Shown in pieces: positions 4,955 to 62,795 of a stretch of DNA of 64,000 bases. Position 1 is the first letter of the stretch, and every line of letters starts with the position of its first letter. The stretch is taken from contig JACPZW010000009.1 of NCBI GenBank assembly GCA_016195265.1, positions 1,125-65,124 on the forward strand. Reading direction: 5' to 3'. A program made the position numbers and the translations under genes. The notes beneath the pieces were generated by a model. The model was not told the origin of the DNA, did not search any database, and saw only the letters and a list, made by a program, of their open reading frames with translations. The stretch comes from Acidobacteriota bacterium. Its GTDB lineage: Bacteria > Acidobacteriota > Vicinamibacteria > Vicinamibacterales > CAVVIG01.

Positions 4955-4997
4955 GGTGTGCTGAACGATTATAGGCGTGCTACGATTTAGGATTCCC

Positions 4998-7844
<2,847 letters not shown>

Positions 7845-18100: not shown

Positions 18101-18322
18101 GGCTGGATACCGCCACTATATCCACACGCTGAGCGGGCGTGCAAGGCAATTGGACCGGTCACAGCCGGTACTTGGAGCAAGCCATATGCCATGGCCTCCA
18201 GCGAAAAACCGCGGGGATTCCGGGCGATCCAACCGCGGCGATTTACCAAACGCGGTCAGTGCTGTCCTCCCGCGTCGCTATAATAAAGGTAGAGGTTGGG
18301 CTCCGCGCCTGTGAGGTGCGGT

Positions 18323-19396
18323 ATGACCGACCCGTCCGACTTCGTCGCGCTGTCGCTGCTCCCCATCTGGTCCTGGCGGGAGGTGGCCGAGCGGCTCCGC
18401 GCCGGCGCCCCGCCGGCCGACATCCTCCGTCAGATCGCCGACCACCGCTGGCCCGACCAGCCGGACAGGATCCAGACCCTGCGCGCGGGCGCGCGCGACG
18501 CGCTCGCGCAGGCGGCCGCGCGCGAGATTGCACCCATCGCGTGGTCCGACGCGTCGTATCCGGTGGCGCTCACGACGATCGTTGATCCGCCGCCGGTGCT
18601 GTGGGCCCGTGGATGCCTCGGGGCGCTGAGCACGCCGTCGGTTGCGATCGTCGGCGCACGCGCGGCGTCGCCGTACGGGCTGACGGTCGCCGAGCATCTC
18701 GCCGCCGATCTTGCGGGATCAGGCGTGACGGTCGTCAGCGGTCTCGCGCGTGGCGTCGACTCGGCCGCGCACCGCGGCGCGCTGGCAGGCCGAGGGATCA
18801 CGATCGCGGTGCTCGGCTGCGGCGCCGACATCGTGTACCCGCCGGAACACGCGTCGCTGTCGCGCGACATCGAGCAGCGCGGCGCGATCGTCAGCGAGCT
18901 CGTGCCGGGAACGCCGCCGCTCCCGCCGTTCTTCCCGCAGCGCAACCGGATCATCAGCGGCCTGTCGCGCGCCGTCGTCGTGATCGAGGCGGGCGAGAAG
19001 AGCGGATCGTTGATCACCGCACGATGCGCGCTCGAGCAGGGACGTGACGTGCTGGCGGTGCCCGGCAACGTCCTGAGCGGCCGGAACCGCGGCGCTCACG
19101 GCCTCTTACGGGACGGTGCAAAGATTGTGGAGTCTGCGGACGATATCTTGGAGGAGCTGGGCATGTCGCAGGGGGACGGGAGTCGGAGTGCGATCGACGG
19201 CCGACTCCCGTGCCCCTCGACAGACCCGATTCTGGCGTGTCTGACGCCAGGTGAACCGAGCAATCTCGACGCAATCGCGGAGCGATCGGGCCTGAGTACT
19301 GCGCGGTTGCTGCCCCGGTTGTTCGAGCTCGAAATGCGCGGCGTCGTCGCGCGTGTCGGCGGCGGCCGGTTCGTCAGGGTTGACAGAACGTGCTAG
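18323..19396 (+). CDS. dprA: DNA-processing protein DprA
   Basis: Motifs include VAIVGARAASPYG, VVSGLARGVDSAAHRGAL and FPQRNRIISGLS. I chose ATG 18323, which follows GAGGTG, over the TTG at 18296. Confidence 0.9.
   Translation: MTDPSDFVALSLLPIWSWREVAERLRAGAPPADILRQIADHRWPDQPDRIQTLRAGARDALAQAAAREIAPIAWSDASYPVALTTIVDPPPVLWARGCLGALSTPSVAIVGARAASPYGLTVAEHLAADLAGSGVTVVSGLARGVDSAAHRGALAGRGITIAVLGCGADIVYPPEHASLSRDIEQRGAIVSELVPGTPPLPPFFPQRNRIISGLSRAVVVIEAGEKSGSLITARCALEQGRDVLAVPGNVLSGRNRGAHGLLRDGAKIVESADDILEELGMSQGDGSRSAIDGRLPCPSTDPILACLTPGEPSNLDAIAERSGLSTARLLPRLFELEMRGVVARVGGGRFVRVDRTC
19172..19216. repeat. Palindromic element inside dprA, with the same 15-mer as in uvrA
   Basis: GGGGACGGGAGTCGG (19172-19186), a 14-nt loop, then CCGACTCCCGTGCCCC (19201-19216). 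It is translated as GDGSRSAIDGRLPCP. Confidence 0.85.
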
Positions 19397-21940: not shown

Positions 21941-21985
21941 CACGAAGACACGAAACCACGAAGAAGATGATTCGTGTTTTCGTGT
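21941..21985. repeat. CACGAAG-family hairpin after topA; probable terminator or mRNA end structure
   Basis: ACACGAAA-c-CACGAA (21948-21962) pairs with TTCGTG-t-TTTCGTGT (21971-21985). That is 14 bp with one mismatch and an 8-nt loop. Confidence 0.65.
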
Positions 21986-22001
21986 TGGGCCGGCCCGCAC
22001 A

Positions 22002-23444
22002 ATGATCACGATCGTTGGCGGCGGTCTCGCGGGTTCTGAAGCCGCGTGGCAGGCGGCCGAATGTGACGTTCCCGTCACGCTCCACGAGATGCGTCCGGTC
22101 CGGCCGACGGTGGTGCACAAGACGGACCGGCTCGCCGAGCTCGTCTGCAGCAACTCCTTCCGCGGCGACAAACTCGACAATGCCGTCGGCCTCCTCAAGG
22201 AGGAAATGCGACGCCTCGGGTCGCTCGTCATGCGCGCGGCGGAGGCGAGCCGCGTGCCCGCCGGCGCGGCGCTGGCCGTCGATCGCGAGCGGTTCGCCGA
22301 GACGATCACGCGCGCGATCACTAAACATCCGCGAATCACCGTGACGCGGCAGGAGGTCACGGCGATTCCGGATTCCAGCGAGCGCGCTCCGGTCATCATC
22401 GCGACAGGCCCGCTGACGTCCGACCCGCTTTCCGCGGCGATCGCCGTGCTCGTTGGCGAGCGGTATCTGTATTTCTACGACGCCATAAGCCCGATCGTCC
22501 TCGCCGAGACCATCGATCGATCGCGAGTGTTCCGCGCGTCGCGGTGGGGAAGAAGCCTTGGCCCGAAGAGCGACGTGCGGGGTGCGGAGTGCGACGTGCG
22601 GCGTACGGAGCGGGGCGACGTGGTCCCCGCGGAGCGCGTCCGGGGGGCGGGGGCCCCCGGATTGGACAATGATGGGCAGGGCGATTACCTGAATTGCCCG
22701 CTGACGCTCGACGAGTACGACCGCTTCTACAACGCGCTGGTGACGGCCGAGTCGGCGACCGTGCACGACTTCGACAAGGAGCGCTTCTTCGAAGGCTGCC
22801 TGCCGATCGAGGTGATGGCGCATCGCGGCCGCGACACGCTGCGCTTCGGTCCGATGAAGCCGGTCGGGCTCGTCGATCCGCGAACCGGGCGCGAACCGTA
22901 CGCGGCGGTGCAATTGCGCCAGGACAATCTCGCCGGCGACCATTTCAGCCTCGTCGGCTTTCAAACGCAGATCAAATGGGGCGAGCAGGCGCGCGTCCTG
23001 CGGCTGATTCCTGGTCTCGAGCAGGCGGAGTTCGTCCGCTTCGGCATGGTCCATCGCAACACCTATGTGAACGGGCCGTCGGTGCTCGACGAGACGTGGC
23101 AGGTGAGAGCGCGGCCGACGCTGTTCTTCGCAGGACAGATGTCCGGCGTCGAAGGGTACGTGGAGTCGGCGGCGTCCGGTTTAATCGCGGGGTTGAACGC
23201 CGCCGCCCTCGCGCGAGGCGAGGCGATCGCGCCTCCGCCCCGGACCACGGCCATCGGCGCGCTGGCGTATTACGTGGCGCACGCGAATCCGGCGCACTAC
23301 GAGCCGTCCAACATCACGTTCGGGATCATCCCGCCGCTGCCCCACGCGCCGCGCGGGAAGAAGCTGCGCAACCAGGCGCTCTCCGATCGCGCGCTCGCCG
23401 ACCTCGACGGCTGGATGCGATCGCGCACGCTGGTGCACCAGTGA
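22002..23444 (+). CDS. trmFO: Methylenetetrahydrofolate--tRNA-(uracil-5-)-methyltransferase
   Basis: Motifs include ITIVGGGLAGSEAAWQ, LVCSNSFR, YLNCPL and FAGQMSGVEGYVESAASG. Confidence 0.95.
   Translation: MITIVGGGLAGSEAAWQAAECDVPVTLHEMRPVRPTVVHKTDRLAELVCSNSFRGDKLDNAVGLLKEEMRRLGSLVMRAAEASRVPAGAALAVDRERFAETITRAITKHPRITVTRQEVTAIPDSSERAPVIIATGPLTSDPLSAAIAVLVGERYLYFYDAISPIVLAETIDRSRVFRASRWGRSLGPKSDVRGAECDVRRTERGDVVPAERVRGAGAPGLDNDGQGDYLNCPLTLDEYDRFYNALVTAESATVHDFDKERFFEGCLPIEVMAHRGRDTLRFGPMKPVGLVDPRTGREPYAAVQLRQDNLAGDHFSLVGFQTQIKWGEQARVLRLIPGLEQAEFVRFGMVHRNTYVNGPSVLDETWQVRARPTLFFAGQMSGVEGYVESAASGLIAGLNAAALARGEAIAPPPRTTAIGALAYYVAHANPAHYEPSNITFGIIPPLPHAPRGKKLRNQALSDRALADLDGWMRSRTLVHQ
22574..22615. 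repeat. GTGCGGN heptad array inside trmFO
   Basis: The units are cgtgcgg ggtgcgg agtgcga cgtgcgg cgtacgg agcgggg. The reverse complement of GGTGCGGAGTGCG recurs at 60455-60467. Confidence 0.7.
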
Positions 23445-24424
23445 CGCGCCATCTGAAGGCGTTCCTGCAGTTCCTCGCGCTCAATCGCAACGCGTCCGCG
23501 CACACGGTTCGCGCCTACGAGAGCGATCTCGGCCAGCTTTTCGCCTTCACGGCTGCCGCGGCGAAGACGTCCGTCGCGGACCTTCAGCCGGCGCAACTCG
23601 ATCGCCTGGCGCTGCGCGGCTTCCTCGGCGATCTGCACAAGCAGGGACAGTCACGCGCGTCGGCGGCGCGCAAGCTCGCGGCCGCCCGGACGTTTCTCAA
23701 GTACCTCCGCCGCGAAGGCGTCATCGAGGACGATCCCGGCGCGCTGGTCTCCACGCCGAAGCGGGACATCCGCATGCCGGCGCACCTGTCCGAAGGCGAG
23801 ATGTCGGCGCTGCTCGACGCGCCGGCCCTCGACAACGCGCTGGGCCGCCGCGATCGCGCGATCCTCGAGCTGTTCTACGCGTCGGGCCTGCGCGTCAGTG
23901 AGCTGGCCGGTCTCGACATCGATGACGTGAACCTGAGCGCGCGCATGGTCCGTGTGCTCGGCAAGGGCGGCAAGGAACGCATCGTCCCGTTCAACACGAG
24001 CGCGACGAAAGCGATCCGAGCCTACTTGAACGATCGCGAGCAGCTGGTGCGAGGCGGGGGTTCGAATCGTGGCGTCCGGCTTCAGCCGGACCGTCGTGGT
24101 CCGTCTAAAGGCGGACGCCACGCGGGAAACCGCGACCCGCTCTTCGTGAACTATCTTGGCCGGCGCTTGACGGTGCGGAGCATCGCGCGGCTGGTTCGGC
24201 GCTACGTCGCCGCGAGCAGCGCGCGGATGGGCATCAGTCCGCACGCCCTCCGGCATTCGTTCGCGACGCACCTGCTCCAGCGCGGCGCCGACCTGCGTGC
24301 GATCCAGGAGCTGCTTGGTCACGCGCGTCTCAGCACGACGCAGCGCTACACGCACGTGAACGCGGCGCAGCTGCTGGAGGTTTACAGGAAGTCGCACCCA
24401 CGGGCGAAGTCCACCAACGGCTAA
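23441..24424 (+). CDS. xerC: Tyrosine recombinase XerC
   Basis: N-terminal SAM-like core (FLALNRNASAHTVRAYESDL) and catalytic residues in ...RDRAILELFYASGLRVSEL...HALRHSFATHLL...LLGHARLSTTQRYTH. The GTG overlaps the trmFO stop codon (GTGA). Confidence 0.9.
   Translation: MTRHLKAFLQFLALNRNASAHTVRAYESDLGQLFAFTAAAAKTSVADLQPAQLDRLALRGFLGDLHKQGQSRASAARKLAAARTFLKYLRREGVIEDDPGALVSTPKRDIRMPAHLSEGEMSALLDAPALDNALGRRDRAILELFYASGLRVSELAGLDIDDVNLSARMVRVLGKGGKERIVPFNTSATKAIRAYLNDREQLVRGGGSNRGVRLQPDRRGPSKGGRHAGNRDPLFVNYLGRRLTVRSIARLVRRYVAASSARMGISPHALRHSFATHLLQRGADLRAIQELLGHARLSTTQRYTHVNAAQLLEVYRKSHPRAKSTNG
24068..24122. repeat. Nested palindromic (REPIN-like) element inside xerC
   Basis: CGTGGCGTCCG (24068-78) pairs with CGGACGCCACG (24112-22). 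Inner hairpins are GTCCGGC-ttca-GCCGGAC and CGGACC-gtcgt-GGTCCG. Confidence 0.7.
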
Positions 24425-24425
24425 T

Positions 24426-24458
24426 CATGAAGCCACGAAGAACACGAAGCGCACGAAG
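24426..24458. repeat. CACGAAG array forming the left arm only
   Basis: CATGAAG and three copies of CACGAAG sit at 24426, 24434, 24443 and 24452, directly after the xerC stop codon. Confidence 0.7.
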
Positions 24459-24534
24459 AAGATCAGAGAGTAGAGCCTCACGTTGATGCCGATCCTCGGA
24501 ATGGCGCCTTCCGCCTATCCTCGGACTTCGCGGC

Positions 24535-26039: not shown

Positions 26040-26966
26040 GGGCGCGGGGCGTTCACGGGCGCGGCAGGATCGTGTGGAGGTGTTCGAGGCCGCCCACGAC
26101 GGCACGCTGTTCCTCGATGAAGTGCGTGACGTATCGCCGGCGCTGCAGGTGCGGTTGTTGCGCGTGCTGCAGGCCCGCGAGGTGCGACGCGTGGGGGAAG
26201 TGCGCCTGCGGCCCGTTGATGTGCGCCTGATTGCGGCCACGCATCGCGATCTGGCGGCGGACGTGGCGCAGGGGCGCTTCCGCCAGGACATGTACTACCG
26301 GTTGCGCGTCGTGGATGGGCACGTGGCGCCGCTGAGGGAGCGCGTCGCGGACGTGGGTGTGTTGATGGATCAGTTGCTGGCGCGCGTGGCAAGCCGGATG
26401 GGGCGGCGGATTCGCGGGTACACGGACGCTGCGCGGCAATTTCTGATTGATTATGCGTGGCCGGAGAACGTCCGCGAGCTGGAACTCGCCGTCGAGCGCG
26501 CGTGTACCGTCTCCGAACAGCCGCTGATCGACGTCGGCGACCTGCCGGACGCGATTCAGCATCGGTTTGTCGTGGATCCGCCGGCGGGCAGTCCCGCCCG
26601 CTGCGCGAGATGGAGCGCGAGTACGTGCAGCTCATCGTCCGGCGCCATCGGGGCGACCGCCGTCGCGCCGCTGAAGAACTCCCGATCTCGCTGGCGACGC
26701 TAAAACGCAAATTGATCGAGGCTCGGCGGCCCGACACGTATCGCGGGCGGCCCTTGTCGACCGCGTTCGTCGCCCGCGGCCTGCCGCAGACGTCTATCAG
26801 GGACCTCGACGCGAACCTTCAGCGAATCGTCGCGGCGATCCGCGACCATGCGGCGGGGATCGGCACACGGATCGCCGCCCGTGCGGCGATTGACGCCGCG
26901 ATCGCGGGAGGTCTGACCGCGATCCAGCATCTCGATTCGAAGCTCCACACACACGAAGACCAGTAA
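26040..26966 (+). pseudogene. 5'-truncated, doubly frameshifted sigma-54-dependent activator remnant
   Basis: GAFTGA (26046-26063) is in frame 0. GTLFLDEV...VRLIAATHRDL...WPENVRELE is in frame 1. The HTH (ELPISLATLKRKL) returns to frame 0. The receiver domain and Walker A are absent. Confidence 0.8.
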
Positions 26967-27003
26967 AGGCTTCGTGTACCTTCGTGGCCTTCGTGTCTTC
27001 GTG
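26951..27003. repeat. CACGAAG-family right arm, one CACGAAG plus four CTTCGTG
   Basis: ACACGAAG (26951-58) pairs with CTTCGTGT (26970-77). Further CTTCGTG units start at 26980, 26989 and 26997. Confidence 0.7.
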
Positions 27004-42426: not shown

Positions 42427-43200
42427 ATGGATCGCGTCTACCGCATCAGCCATCAGGGCGCCGTGCAGCATGCCGTCGAGCGCGAGGGCGCGCTGCACCG
42501 GATCGGCGGCGACGTGTTCGGCGGTTACACGCTGAGCGAGGCCATTCCCGGCGGCCTGAACGCGGCCGGGCTGCGCGTGCTCGCGCCCGTCACTCCGTCG
42601 AAAATCGTCTGCGTCGGGCTCAACTACAAGGATCACGCCGCTGAGAGCGGCGTGACGCTGCCGGACGAGCCGCTGCTGTTCTTCAAACCGCCGACCGCGG
42701 TCATCGGGCCGGGGGATCGGATCCGGTTGCCGCCCGGCGTCGGACGCGTCGATCACGAAGCGGAGCTGGCGCTCGTCATCGGACGCCGCGCGCACCGCGT
42801 GCCGCGCGCCCGCGCGTGGGAGTACGTGTGCGGCCTGACGTGCCTCAACGACGTCACCGCGCGCGAGATGCAGCACAAGGAGTCGCAGTTCACGCGCTGC
42901 AAGGGATTCGACACGTTCTCGCCCGTCGGGCCGTGCATCGTCACCGGACTCAACGGCGAGCCGCGCAACGTCGAGGCGTGGGTCAACGGCGGGCGACGCC
43001 AGGCGTCGAACACGCGGCATCTGATTTTCCCGATCGACTACCTCATCGAGTACATCTCGTTCGTGATGACGCTCGAGCCCGGCGACATCGTCTCGACGGG
43101 CACGCCCGAAGGCGTTGGACCTATCACCGCCGGCGATACGGTAACGGTGAGCGTGGAAGGCGTCGGCGAGTTGAGCAATCCGGTGATGAATGAACAATGA
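42427..43200 (+). CDS. Fumarylacetoacetate hydrolase-family protein
   Basis: Motifs include KIVCVGLNYKDHA, FFKPPTAVIGPGD, HEAELALVIG and GDIVSTGTPEGVG. Confidence 0.9.
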   Translation: MDRVYRISHQGAVQHAVEREGALHRIGGDVFGGYTLSEAIPGGLNAAGLRVLAPVTPSKIVCVGLNYKDHAAESGVTLPDEPLLFFKPPTAVIGPGDRIRLPPGVGRVDHEAELALVIGRRAHRVPRARAWEYVCGLTCLNDVTAREMQHKESQFTRCKGFDTFSPVGPCIVTGLNGEPRNVEAWVNGGRRQASNTRHLIFPIDYLIEYISFVMTLEPGDIVSTGTPEGVGPITAGDTVTVSVEGVGELSNPVMNEQ

Positions 43201-43293
43201 GAGTTCAGATTTCAGAGTTCAGATTTCAGATTGATTGCAGATCTTGTGACTTGCCCCTCAATCTGAAATCTGAACTCTGAATTCTGAAATCTC
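43201..43293. repeat. Long heptad hairpin, (TTCAGAK)n versus (MTCTGAA)n
   Basis: 43211-43231 is the exact complement of 43261-43281 (21 bp). Pairing extends to about 30 bp with mismatches, around a 29-nt loop. The element starts at the first base after the upstream stop codon. Confidence 0.9.
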
Positions 43294-59754: not shown

Positions 59755-59765
59755 TGAAGGAAGAA

Positions 59766-59848
59766 ATGCAGGAATGCAGGAATGCAGGAATGCAGAGAAG
59801 CGTGCGGAATGTCTCTCTTGCATTCTTGCATTCCTGCATTCTTGCATT
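59766..59848. repeat. Octad hairpin, (ATGCAGGA)x4 versus (CTTGCATT)x4
   Basis: The left arm is 59766-59797 and the right arm 59817-59848. Allowing G:U wobble, about 32 nt of RNA can pair. The loop is 19 nt. Confidence 0.88.
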
Positions 59849-60323
59849 TGCGCTCAGCCCCCCCGCCCACGCGGAGGTCATCGAGCGCGTGCTCGCGGTC
59901 GTGGCGGGGCAGCCGATCACGCTGAGCGACGTCGTCGCCGCCCGCGATCTGGGACTCGAGTTGGCCGGAAACGCGTCCGATCCGCTGCGTGCGGTGCTGT
60001 CCCGGCTGATCGATCGTGAGCTGATGGCGGCCGAGGCCGAGCGCTACGGCCCGCCCGAGCCGACGGCCGAGGCGGTGGACCGCGACGTGGCGCGCGTCCG
60101 CGCGCGGTTCCCGTCGCCGGAGGCGTTCGACGCCGCCGCCGCGCGATCAGGCATCGACGACAAGCATCTGCGCGAAACCGTCCGGCAGAACCTGCGCATC
60201 GCGGCCTATCTCGAGCAGCGCTTCACCGCGGCCGGCGACCGACGGCAGGCGTTGATCGATGAGTGGGTTGCCGGGCTGCGACGGCGGGGGAACGTCCTCG
60301 ATCTGTATCTGCCCGGACGATAG
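59790..60323 (+). CDS. SurA N-terminal-domain-like periplasmic chaperone without a PPIase domain
   Basis: The signal peptide is MQRSVRNVSLAFLHSCILAFALSPPAHA. It is followed by VIERVLAVVAGQPITLSDV...LIDRELMAAEAERYG. Alternative in-frame ATGs are at 59754 and 59766. Confidence 0.65.
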   Translation: MQRSVRNVSLAFLHSCILAFALSPPAHAEVIERVLAVVAGQPITLSDVVAARDLGLELAGNASDPLRAVLSRLIDRELMAAEAERYGPPEPTAEAVDRDVARVRARFPSPEAFDAAAARSGIDDKHLRETVRQNLRIAAYLEQRFTAAGDRRQALIDEWVAGLRRRGNVLDLYLPGR

Positions 60324-62717: not shown

Positions 62718-62795
62718 GTGGCTGGTGACTGGTGACTGGTGGCTGGAAATACCGCCATTGAGCCCTCAGCCACTAGCCACCAGCCACTAGCCACC
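62718..62795. repeat. GGTGGCT/CCAGCCA-family hairpin between the regulator stop codon and the kinase start codon
   Basis: The arm ggtggctggtgactggtgactggtggctg (62718-46) faces cagccactagccaccagccactagccacc (62767-95), with about 4 mismatches in 29. Confidence 0.78.

Follow-up and report, generated by a model that had tools for sequence, protein, structure and literature searches.

Introduction

The BIMEs of E. coli are mosaics of Y and Z REP types in inverted orientation; they are extragenic and contain defined inter-REP motifs, with IHF or gyrase sites. Di Nocera, De Gregorio and Rocco (2013, BMC Genomics 14:522; PMC3733652) described two further kinds of REP, GTAG-tagged and CGTC-tagged. 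The former are palindromic units of 20–40 nt with a terminal GTAG, GTGG being the predominant form in one family of Opitutus terrae. They occur as single units and as head-to-head or tail-to-tail dimers, and the same repeats bracket RAYT genes. Some REPs lie wholly within ORFs, where they encode 20–30 residues, often in replication or repair genes (PMC3733652). In the REPIN–RAYT system (Bertels and Rainey 2011, PMC3116915), two inverted REPs make up one long hairpin, and a single-copy Y1 transposase is flanked by the repeats; REPINs are dispersed, inherited within a lineage and extragenic. Palindromic repeats that lie in frame in genes for functional proteins are represented by the Rickettsia palindromic elements (RPEs; Ogata et al. 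2000, as cited in PMC3733652), of which RPE-4 and RPE-6 are short and CGTC-tagged (PMC3733652).

We found no paper on REPs in Vicinamibacteria. Here, we describe an element within xerC in a genome of the Vicinamibacterales (Acidobacteriota; 4.5 Mb, 66.8% GC), from an assembly of 87 contigs that is 91% complete. The window, i.e., the whole stretch of DNA that was analysed, comprises 64,000 nt. We conclude, with a probability of roughly 0.85, that the element is a tail-to-tail dimer of GTAG/GTGG-tagged REPs, inserted in frame where XerC, otherwise intact, has a disordered surface loop that tolerates changes in length.

The palindrome in xerC

The locus comprises the following features:

23441–24424, plus strand: xerC, GTG start; encodes a 327-aa tyrosine recombinase (ORF and Pfam)
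24047–24133, plus strand: hypervariable XerC loop, approximately residues 203–231, VRGGGSNRGVRLQPDRRGPSKGGRHAGNR, between helix 186–205 and the DPLFVNY strand
24068–24092, plus strand: REP unit 1, R1 family, GG/CC subtype; head CGTGGC, then hairpin GTCCGGCT-TC-AGCCGGAC, then C
24093–24097, no strand: spacer of 5 nt, GTCGT, between the tails of units 1 and 2
24098–24122, minus strand: REP unit 2, inverted; R1 family, GC/GC subtype, TTTA loop; the minus strand reads CGTGGCGTCCGCCTTTAGACGGACC

The preliminary description had reported an 11-bp outer inverted repeat enclosing two inner hairpins. The 11-mer CGTGGCGTCCG is indeed present at 24068–24078, with its reverse complement at 24112–24122, but the true dyad is longer. 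A repeat finder delineated a 55-bp inverted repeat at 24068–24122, reading CGTGGCGTCCGGCTTCAGCCGGACC-GTCGT-GGTCCGTCTAAAGGCGGACGCCACG, with arms of 25 nt each (24068–24092 and 24098–24122) that are complementary at 22 of 25 positions (88%) and separated by a 5-nt spacer. Both inner hairpins were also located, at 24074–24091 and 24099–24116. The first, GTCCGGCT/AGCCGGAC (24074–24081/24084–24091), has a perfect 8-bp stem and a 2-nt loop. The second, GTCCGTCT/AGGCGGAC (24099–24106/24109–24116), has, from reading of the sequence, eight pairs, including one T·G (G·U in RNA). When folded as RNA, the region 24055–24135 had an energy of −50.2 kcal/mol, compared to −34.0 ± 3.4 kcal/mol for shuffled sequences (z = −4.75), and none of 200 shuffles was as stable.

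The block is in frame in xerC, with the predicted translation ...NRGVRLQPDRRGPSKGGRHAG..., in which units 1 and 2 correspond to RGVRLQPDR and GPSKGGRHA, respectively. The insert, GVRLQPDRRGPSK in predicted translation, would thus be read as protein within XerC, where it occupies approximately residues 210–228 of a 32-residue loop.

Searches in and near the element gave no match in Rfam, and a promoter and terminator scan of the same region was empty. We had considered an attenuator or terminator role for the hairpin, and dropped it because of the empty scan.

The XerC host protein

The xerC start and the trmFO stop overlap in the 4 nt GTGA. The 327-aa ORF is intact, and Pfam identified both recombinase domains, PF02899 (Phage_int_SAM_1; 9e-18) and PF00589 (Phage_integrase; 2e-43). 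In 38 of the 41 related genomes, the single best XerC match was 57–90% identical to this protein, and the catalytic residues R151, K175/K178, H268, R271, H294 and Y303 are invariant in the orthologue alignment. The protein aligned with E. coli XerD (1A0P) at 8.5e-53, residues 5–199 and 232–314 matching XerD 6–194 and 205–288. XerD has 10 residues where the query has 32, in agreement with the earlier claim that this spacing is short in E. coli and about 32 residues here.

In an AlphaFold2 model, residues 207–229, which follow helix 186–205, had no secondary structure and a pLDDT below 50. The model as a whole was of moderate quality (mean pLDDT 70, pTM 0.48) and was used solely to assess disorder of the loop. 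Judging by the model, by the comparison with XerD and by the loop lengths of the homologues (see below), the insert lies in what appears to be a disordered, length-tolerant surface loop.

The R1 repeat family

The repeat nature of the arms first surfaced when the whole 81-nt region was compared with the assembly by blastn-short. In this short-word search of the whole assembly, the left arm recurred as perfect matches of 25–30 nt on many contigs. Each xerC arm is one copy of a dispersed 25-nt repeat, CGTGGCGTCCGGCTTCAGCCGGACC, which we named R1. The number of copies in the whole genome was 7, 22, 39, 58, 71 and 95 at zero to five mismatches, while a reversed 25-mer control yielded 0, 0, 0 and 1 at zero, two, four and five mismatches. 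The copies are spread over at least 40 contigs. Beyond this genome, the R1 core was found in 27 of 41 related genomes, with 0–275 copies each, while controls yielded 0–2.

A search with the 11-mer, as the preliminary description had proposed, would have been misleading as the only test of repeat nature. In the window, the 11-mer is not enriched (13 matches at up to one mismatch, 9.5 expected), and genome-wide the exact pair of 11-mer arms with its spacer was found only at xerC; the family appeared when the whole 25-nt arm was used.

The R1 unit consists of a GTGG or GTAG head followed by a hairpin whose stem is 8 bp long and whose centre is TTCA or TTTA. Among 71 copies, the head was GTGG in 47 and GTAG in 12. 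One stem pair was G-C in 58 copies and C-G in 10, and only three copies had lost the pairing, from which we infer that the hairpin has been kept by compensatory change. The unit is open in five of its six reading frames. Unit 1 of the xerC element matches the R1 consensus without mismatches; unit 2 has three (stem GCC...G[G>A]C), one of them a change beyond its subtype. Both carry the GTGG head. The units are arranged tail to tail with the heads outermost, a polarity shared with the units that bracket RAYT genes (see below).

R1 dimers were collected with a looser core pattern (any 4-nt loop, two substitutions allowed), which gave 646 mostly spurious matches, from which pairs with R1 loops were kept by eye. 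Eight of the 11 dimers pair a GG/CC with a GC/GC subtype, compared to 23% expected (binomial P = 7e-4), so that the xerC dimer is a typical R1 heterodimer. The other 10 dimers have spacers of 7–53 nt and are mostly head to head. The exact xerC dimer occurs once in the genome; movement of the dimer as one unit is therefore unsupported.

Association with RAYT genes

To find RAYT genes in the relatives, we searched with the Y1_Tnp profile (PF01797) and scanned the flanks of the hits. In five related genomes (G021, G003, G008, G037 and G010), R1 units bracket RAYT-like Y1/HUH genes on both sides, with the heads pointing outward; G015 has an array of a TTCCGG variant. The R1-flanked genes encode proteins of about 160–180 aa with weak Y1_Tnp scores, a PDHVHLL motif (HVH) and an ARYI-NP tyrosine region. 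Such an association with RAYTs is what defines REPs, and it identifies R1 as a true GTAG-type REP.

Neither Pfam nor tblastn with the relatives' R1-flanked RAYTs revealed an R1-type RAYT in the 91% complete assembly studied here. This absence is weak evidence, since the assembly is incomplete and REP-flanked genes assemble poorly. In G001, a genome of the same genus, four RAYT-like genes were found, with no R1 in the flanks that were fetched. What the assembly did yield was one full RAYT gene, flanked by another family, R2, together with a RAYT remnant, 53 residues long, between units of a third, R3. The full gene lies at C37:131631-132107. R2 (GTAGG[GC]CGGGTCC-TTTC/TTTT-GGACCCG[GC]C) has about 546 copies genome-wide.

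In the surrounding region (C37:131300-132260), the RAYT gene is placed between R2 arrays (GTAGGGCGGGTCCTTTCGGACCCGCC and GCCGGGTCCAAAAGGACCCGGCCTAC) of at least eight units upstream and at least four downstream. The remnant, at C79:16490-16790, is C-terminal and is flanked by inverted units of R3 (GTAGCGCAG[GC]CCTTCAGG[GC]CTGC; about 48 copies). Together, the remnant and the R3 units look like a decayed REP–RAYT system.

Turnover of the XerC loop

We compared the loop in 120 XerC homologues of 74–100% identity. Between YLxDRExLV and RDPLFVNY, its length ranged from 15 to 58 residues, with zero to three R1 units. In predicted translation, the forward unit (F) reads VRLQ[PA]DR and the reverse unit (R) GP[AP]K[AG]GH[YH]. 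The arrangements were distributed as follows:

No unit: 80 of 120 homologues
FR: 11 of 120
F: 9 of 120
R: 8 of 120
RF: 7 of 120
FFR: 2 of 120
FFF: 1 of 120
RR: 1 of 120
FRR: 1 of 120

We built a tree without the loop residues; to explain the presence and absence of units on it, no fewer than 28 changes are required. Sister XerCs separated by only 0.04–0.07 substitutions per site differ in unit content. The site is empty at the DNA level in P0009, P0010 and G014, and the element is absent from P0062. With these orthologues lacking it, and with arms that belong to a dispersed family of 71–95 copies, the element is best described as an insert, as had been proposed. At the other extreme, three units follow one another in tandem in P0007, with a period of 30 nt. 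The preliminary description had reasoned that a segment shared by orthologues would speak against an insertion. Many orthologues do share REP-derived sequence at the site, but with zero to three units in varied orientation this is not ordinary conserved sequence; such variation is what is expected of a mobile or turnover-prone element. Comparison of empty and filled sites did not reveal a clean insertion with a target duplication, and the neighbouring loop codons also differ.

In P0005, from a metagenome contig (L066), the loop of the resident R1 hairpin contains a further palindrome, 45 nt long and of a different family (CCCTTCGGCAAGCTCAGGGCCGCCCCTAGCAACGTCGAGGGGCGG, translated PFGKLRAAPSNVEG), with an apparent duplication of CGG. 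From its sequence, the R1 hairpin would thus have been a target for a second element.

Where R1 is missing, the loop contains sequence derived from other repeats, e.g., GQDGQD...PSRLSRPS and GQVGRVG. Many of the homologues P0012–P0121 fill the loop with GQ[DE]G[QR][DE]...S[VR]PSRLSRPS, which resembles an in-frame translation of both arms of an inverted tandem-array element. Heptad-type tandem arrays are found in the xerC loop DNA of species representatives.

Origin and persistence of the insert

We propose that the R1 units reached xerC as single-stranded hairpin DNA, which could have been handled by a RAYT acting in cis or in trans, or the units could have arrived by REP-to-REP targeting or gene conversion. 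Unit 1 would be older than the genus, and unit 2, of the other subtype, would have arrived later beside it, giving the usual heterodimer. The insert would persist because it is a multiple of three bases with no stop in the frames used, and because the Gly/Pro/Arg-rich peptide would be accommodated in a loop irrelevant to catalysis. The effect on XerC would be neutral or nearly so.

The history of the site among the closest relatives bears on this proposal. A forward unit with an identical 18-nt core is present at the same site in the genome studied here and in G001, P0003, P0004, P0005 and P0007, and the unit stands alone in G001, P0003, P0004, P0006 and P0008. G001, with 90% identity, lacks 33 nt that include unit 2, and our genome is the sole FR in its nine-member clade. 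Thus, unit 2 is probably a later arrival. Both this distribution and the lack of a second exact dimer in the genome could also be explained if the second arm had been made in place from unit 1, by inverted duplication or template switching at the hairpin. We consider such a local origin unlikely. Rather than being a copy of unit 1, unit 2 belongs to the other subtype, which is present elsewhere in the genome; heterodimers are the rule in R1 (8 of 11); and the same FR heterodimer is found in the more distant orthologues P0011, P0042, P0070 and P0109. These distant heterodimers would also fit an older origin of the dimer, followed by losses.

We also considered that the insert had been exapted, so that the DNA or mRNA hairpin, or the Arg-rich peptide, now serves xerC in expression, in mRNA stability or as a loop contacting DNA or a partner. 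Codons for the same amino acid were identical between pairs of sequences in 73% of cases in the flanks and in 95% in the REP core, i.e., synonymous sites have changed less in the core than in the gene around it. Across six sequences, 27 of 64 flank codons were invariant, while the 18-nt core was identical in all six; the rough chance of six invariant core codons in a row is 0.006, which is not a strict probability since the sequences are related. P0008 has a GCC/GGC variant in which a compensatory double change keeps the stem. Such a function would also fit the basic character of the loop in nearly all orthologues and its occupation by very different palindromic families across the order. The core is thus kept at the nucleotide level, either because the hairpin is under selection or because the copies convert one another. 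However, constraint on the element itself, or conversion, explains this conservation equally well. XerC functions with no unit at all in the close relatives P0009, P0010, G014 and P0062, copy number and orientation vary freely, the same units occur in many unrelated proteins, and the terminator, promoter and Rfam searches were negative. Taken together, we find a function for the insert in xerC very improbable.

Finally, a chance palindrome in a native XerC loop, as the unenriched 11-mer in the window and the unique arm pair might suggest, is refuted by the 71–95 genomic copies of the arm against 0–1 in the control and by the same unit in 27 related genomes and beside RAYT genes, and the stability of the fold (z = −4.75) speaks against it as well. 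We therefore retain the interpretation of the xerC element as an in-frame REP dimer.

REPs inside other genes

We called a repeat coding if an open frame of at least 50 codons extended on each side and both flanks had the GC3 pattern of coding sequence, a criterion of our own. By this measure, which calls only 56% of random positions coding, 23 of 82 R1 cores (28%) are coding and 59 of 82 fail. R1 thus appears depleted in genes, yet far from excluded. The same criterion was satisfied by 52 of 546 R2 cores and eight of 48 R3 units. According to Pfam, R1 units lie inside two Pkinase domains, two Sulfatase domains, and AcrB, IspD and CarboxypepD_reg domains; others lie in linkers of a CDC48-like AAA ATPase, a penicillin amidase and an AlaX-like protein.

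Two Ser/Thr kinase genes of this genome, C87:2214-4499 and C87:5547-6794, have R1, as a single unit and as a head-to-head dimer, in their activation loops (DFG-APE). R2 dimers, translated GRVLSDPP and (M/L)PGPKGPGL, occupy an identical site in at least four paralogous Ser/Thr kinases (C20:54707, C29:39468, C46:910 and C53:35211), after LVEGETLAERI and before ALAIA.QIA..L..AH. Either the insertion preceded duplication of the paralogues, or insertion occurred repeatedly at one site.

The preliminary description had counted xerC as the fourth housekeeping gene within 20 kb to carry such an insert. In-frame inserts are indeed present in uvrA, dprA and trmFO, but these belong to different repeat families. 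In uvrA (4977–7844), an in-frame GGGGACGGGAGTCGG hairpin at 6676–6753 falls in the inter-ABC linker, and in dprA (18296–19396) a GGGGACGGGAGTCGG hairpin, also in frame, at 19170–19217 separates the DprA core from the winged-helix domain; these hairpins constitute a further palindromic family. In trmFO (22002–23444), there is an in-frame GTGCGGN heptad array at 22570–22610 (21-nt period, twice), followed by GC-rich palindromes. The array splits the GIDA-family match into two stretches, and its family differs from that of the xerC element.

Elsewhere in the window, inverted pairs of 7–9-nt tandem arrays form long hairpins at 43199–43293, 59764–59849, 62718–62787, 21941–21986, 24434–24460 and 26949–27003. 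The words of these arrays (AATCTGA, AATGCAGG, CAGCCAC/CAGTCAC and CACGAAG) also belong to the most abundant 14-mers genome-wide.

Implications

The xerC locus is a clean, well-anchored example of a REP dimer in the reading frame of an essential chromosome-dimer resolvase. Its orthologues include empty sites, single units, a tandem triplet, both polarities of the dimer and an element nested in a hairpin loop. This series could be used to measure rates of REP gain and loss at one orthologous site and to test the neutrality of the insert. The points worth remembering are this complete allelic series at a single site and the apparently high proportion of REPs that lie within genes in this lineage.

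A broader idea, which we put forward tentatively and consider rather doubtful, is that the REP–RAYT systems of the Vicinamibacterales colonise coding DNA as a routine habitat, and that certain loops are landing pads on which palindromic families replace one another within short evolutionary distances. About a quarter of R1 and dozens of R2 units are in frame, and candidate landing pads would be the XerC loop and the activation and αD–αE loops of Ser/Thr kinases. If so, the units would be selected for “codability”, with five of six frames open and disordered peptides rich in Gly, Pro and Arg, and REP units would continually supply essential proteins with new linker sequence. The intragenic REPs known to date are scattered, and a routine of this kind would be a step beyond them.

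For annotation, the length and sequence of protein loops in the Vicinamibacterales are to be regarded as partly repeat-derived, and VRLQPDR, GPAKAGHY, GRVLSDPP and PGPKGPGL should not be taken as functional motifs.

Comparison with known systems

Like a REPIN, the xerC element consists of two inverted REPs that form one long hairpin. However, the dimer has no second identical copy, whereas REPINs are replicated as dimers; no cognate RAYT was found in this 91% complete assembly; and the element is intragenic and in coding frame, whereas REPINs are extragenic. The pairing of GG/CC with GC/GC subtypes in R1 recalls the pairing of Y and Z in BIMEs. The resemblance to RPEs is in behaviour only, a peptide being added without destroying the fold. 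RPE-1 is much longer, about 100–150 bp.

The closest match is to the GTAG-tagged REPs. R1 is a 25-nt palindrome with a GT[AG]G foot, has dispersed copies, and flanks RAYT genes in five relatives, not in our own assembly. With the intragenic GTAG REPs described previously (PMC3733652), the xerC element shares unit size, head, dimers, intragenic copies and RAYT flanks. Intragenic GTAG REPs are thus already known from other bacteria, and the xerC element adds another case. The main text of that study names no xerC or recombinase host, and the order Vicinamibacterales of the Acidobacteriota was not covered. Compared to the REPs described there, the intragenic share of R1 appears high (28% of cores by the ORF and GC3 criterion), and in the present case a single loop of one gene turns over repeatedly across the order.
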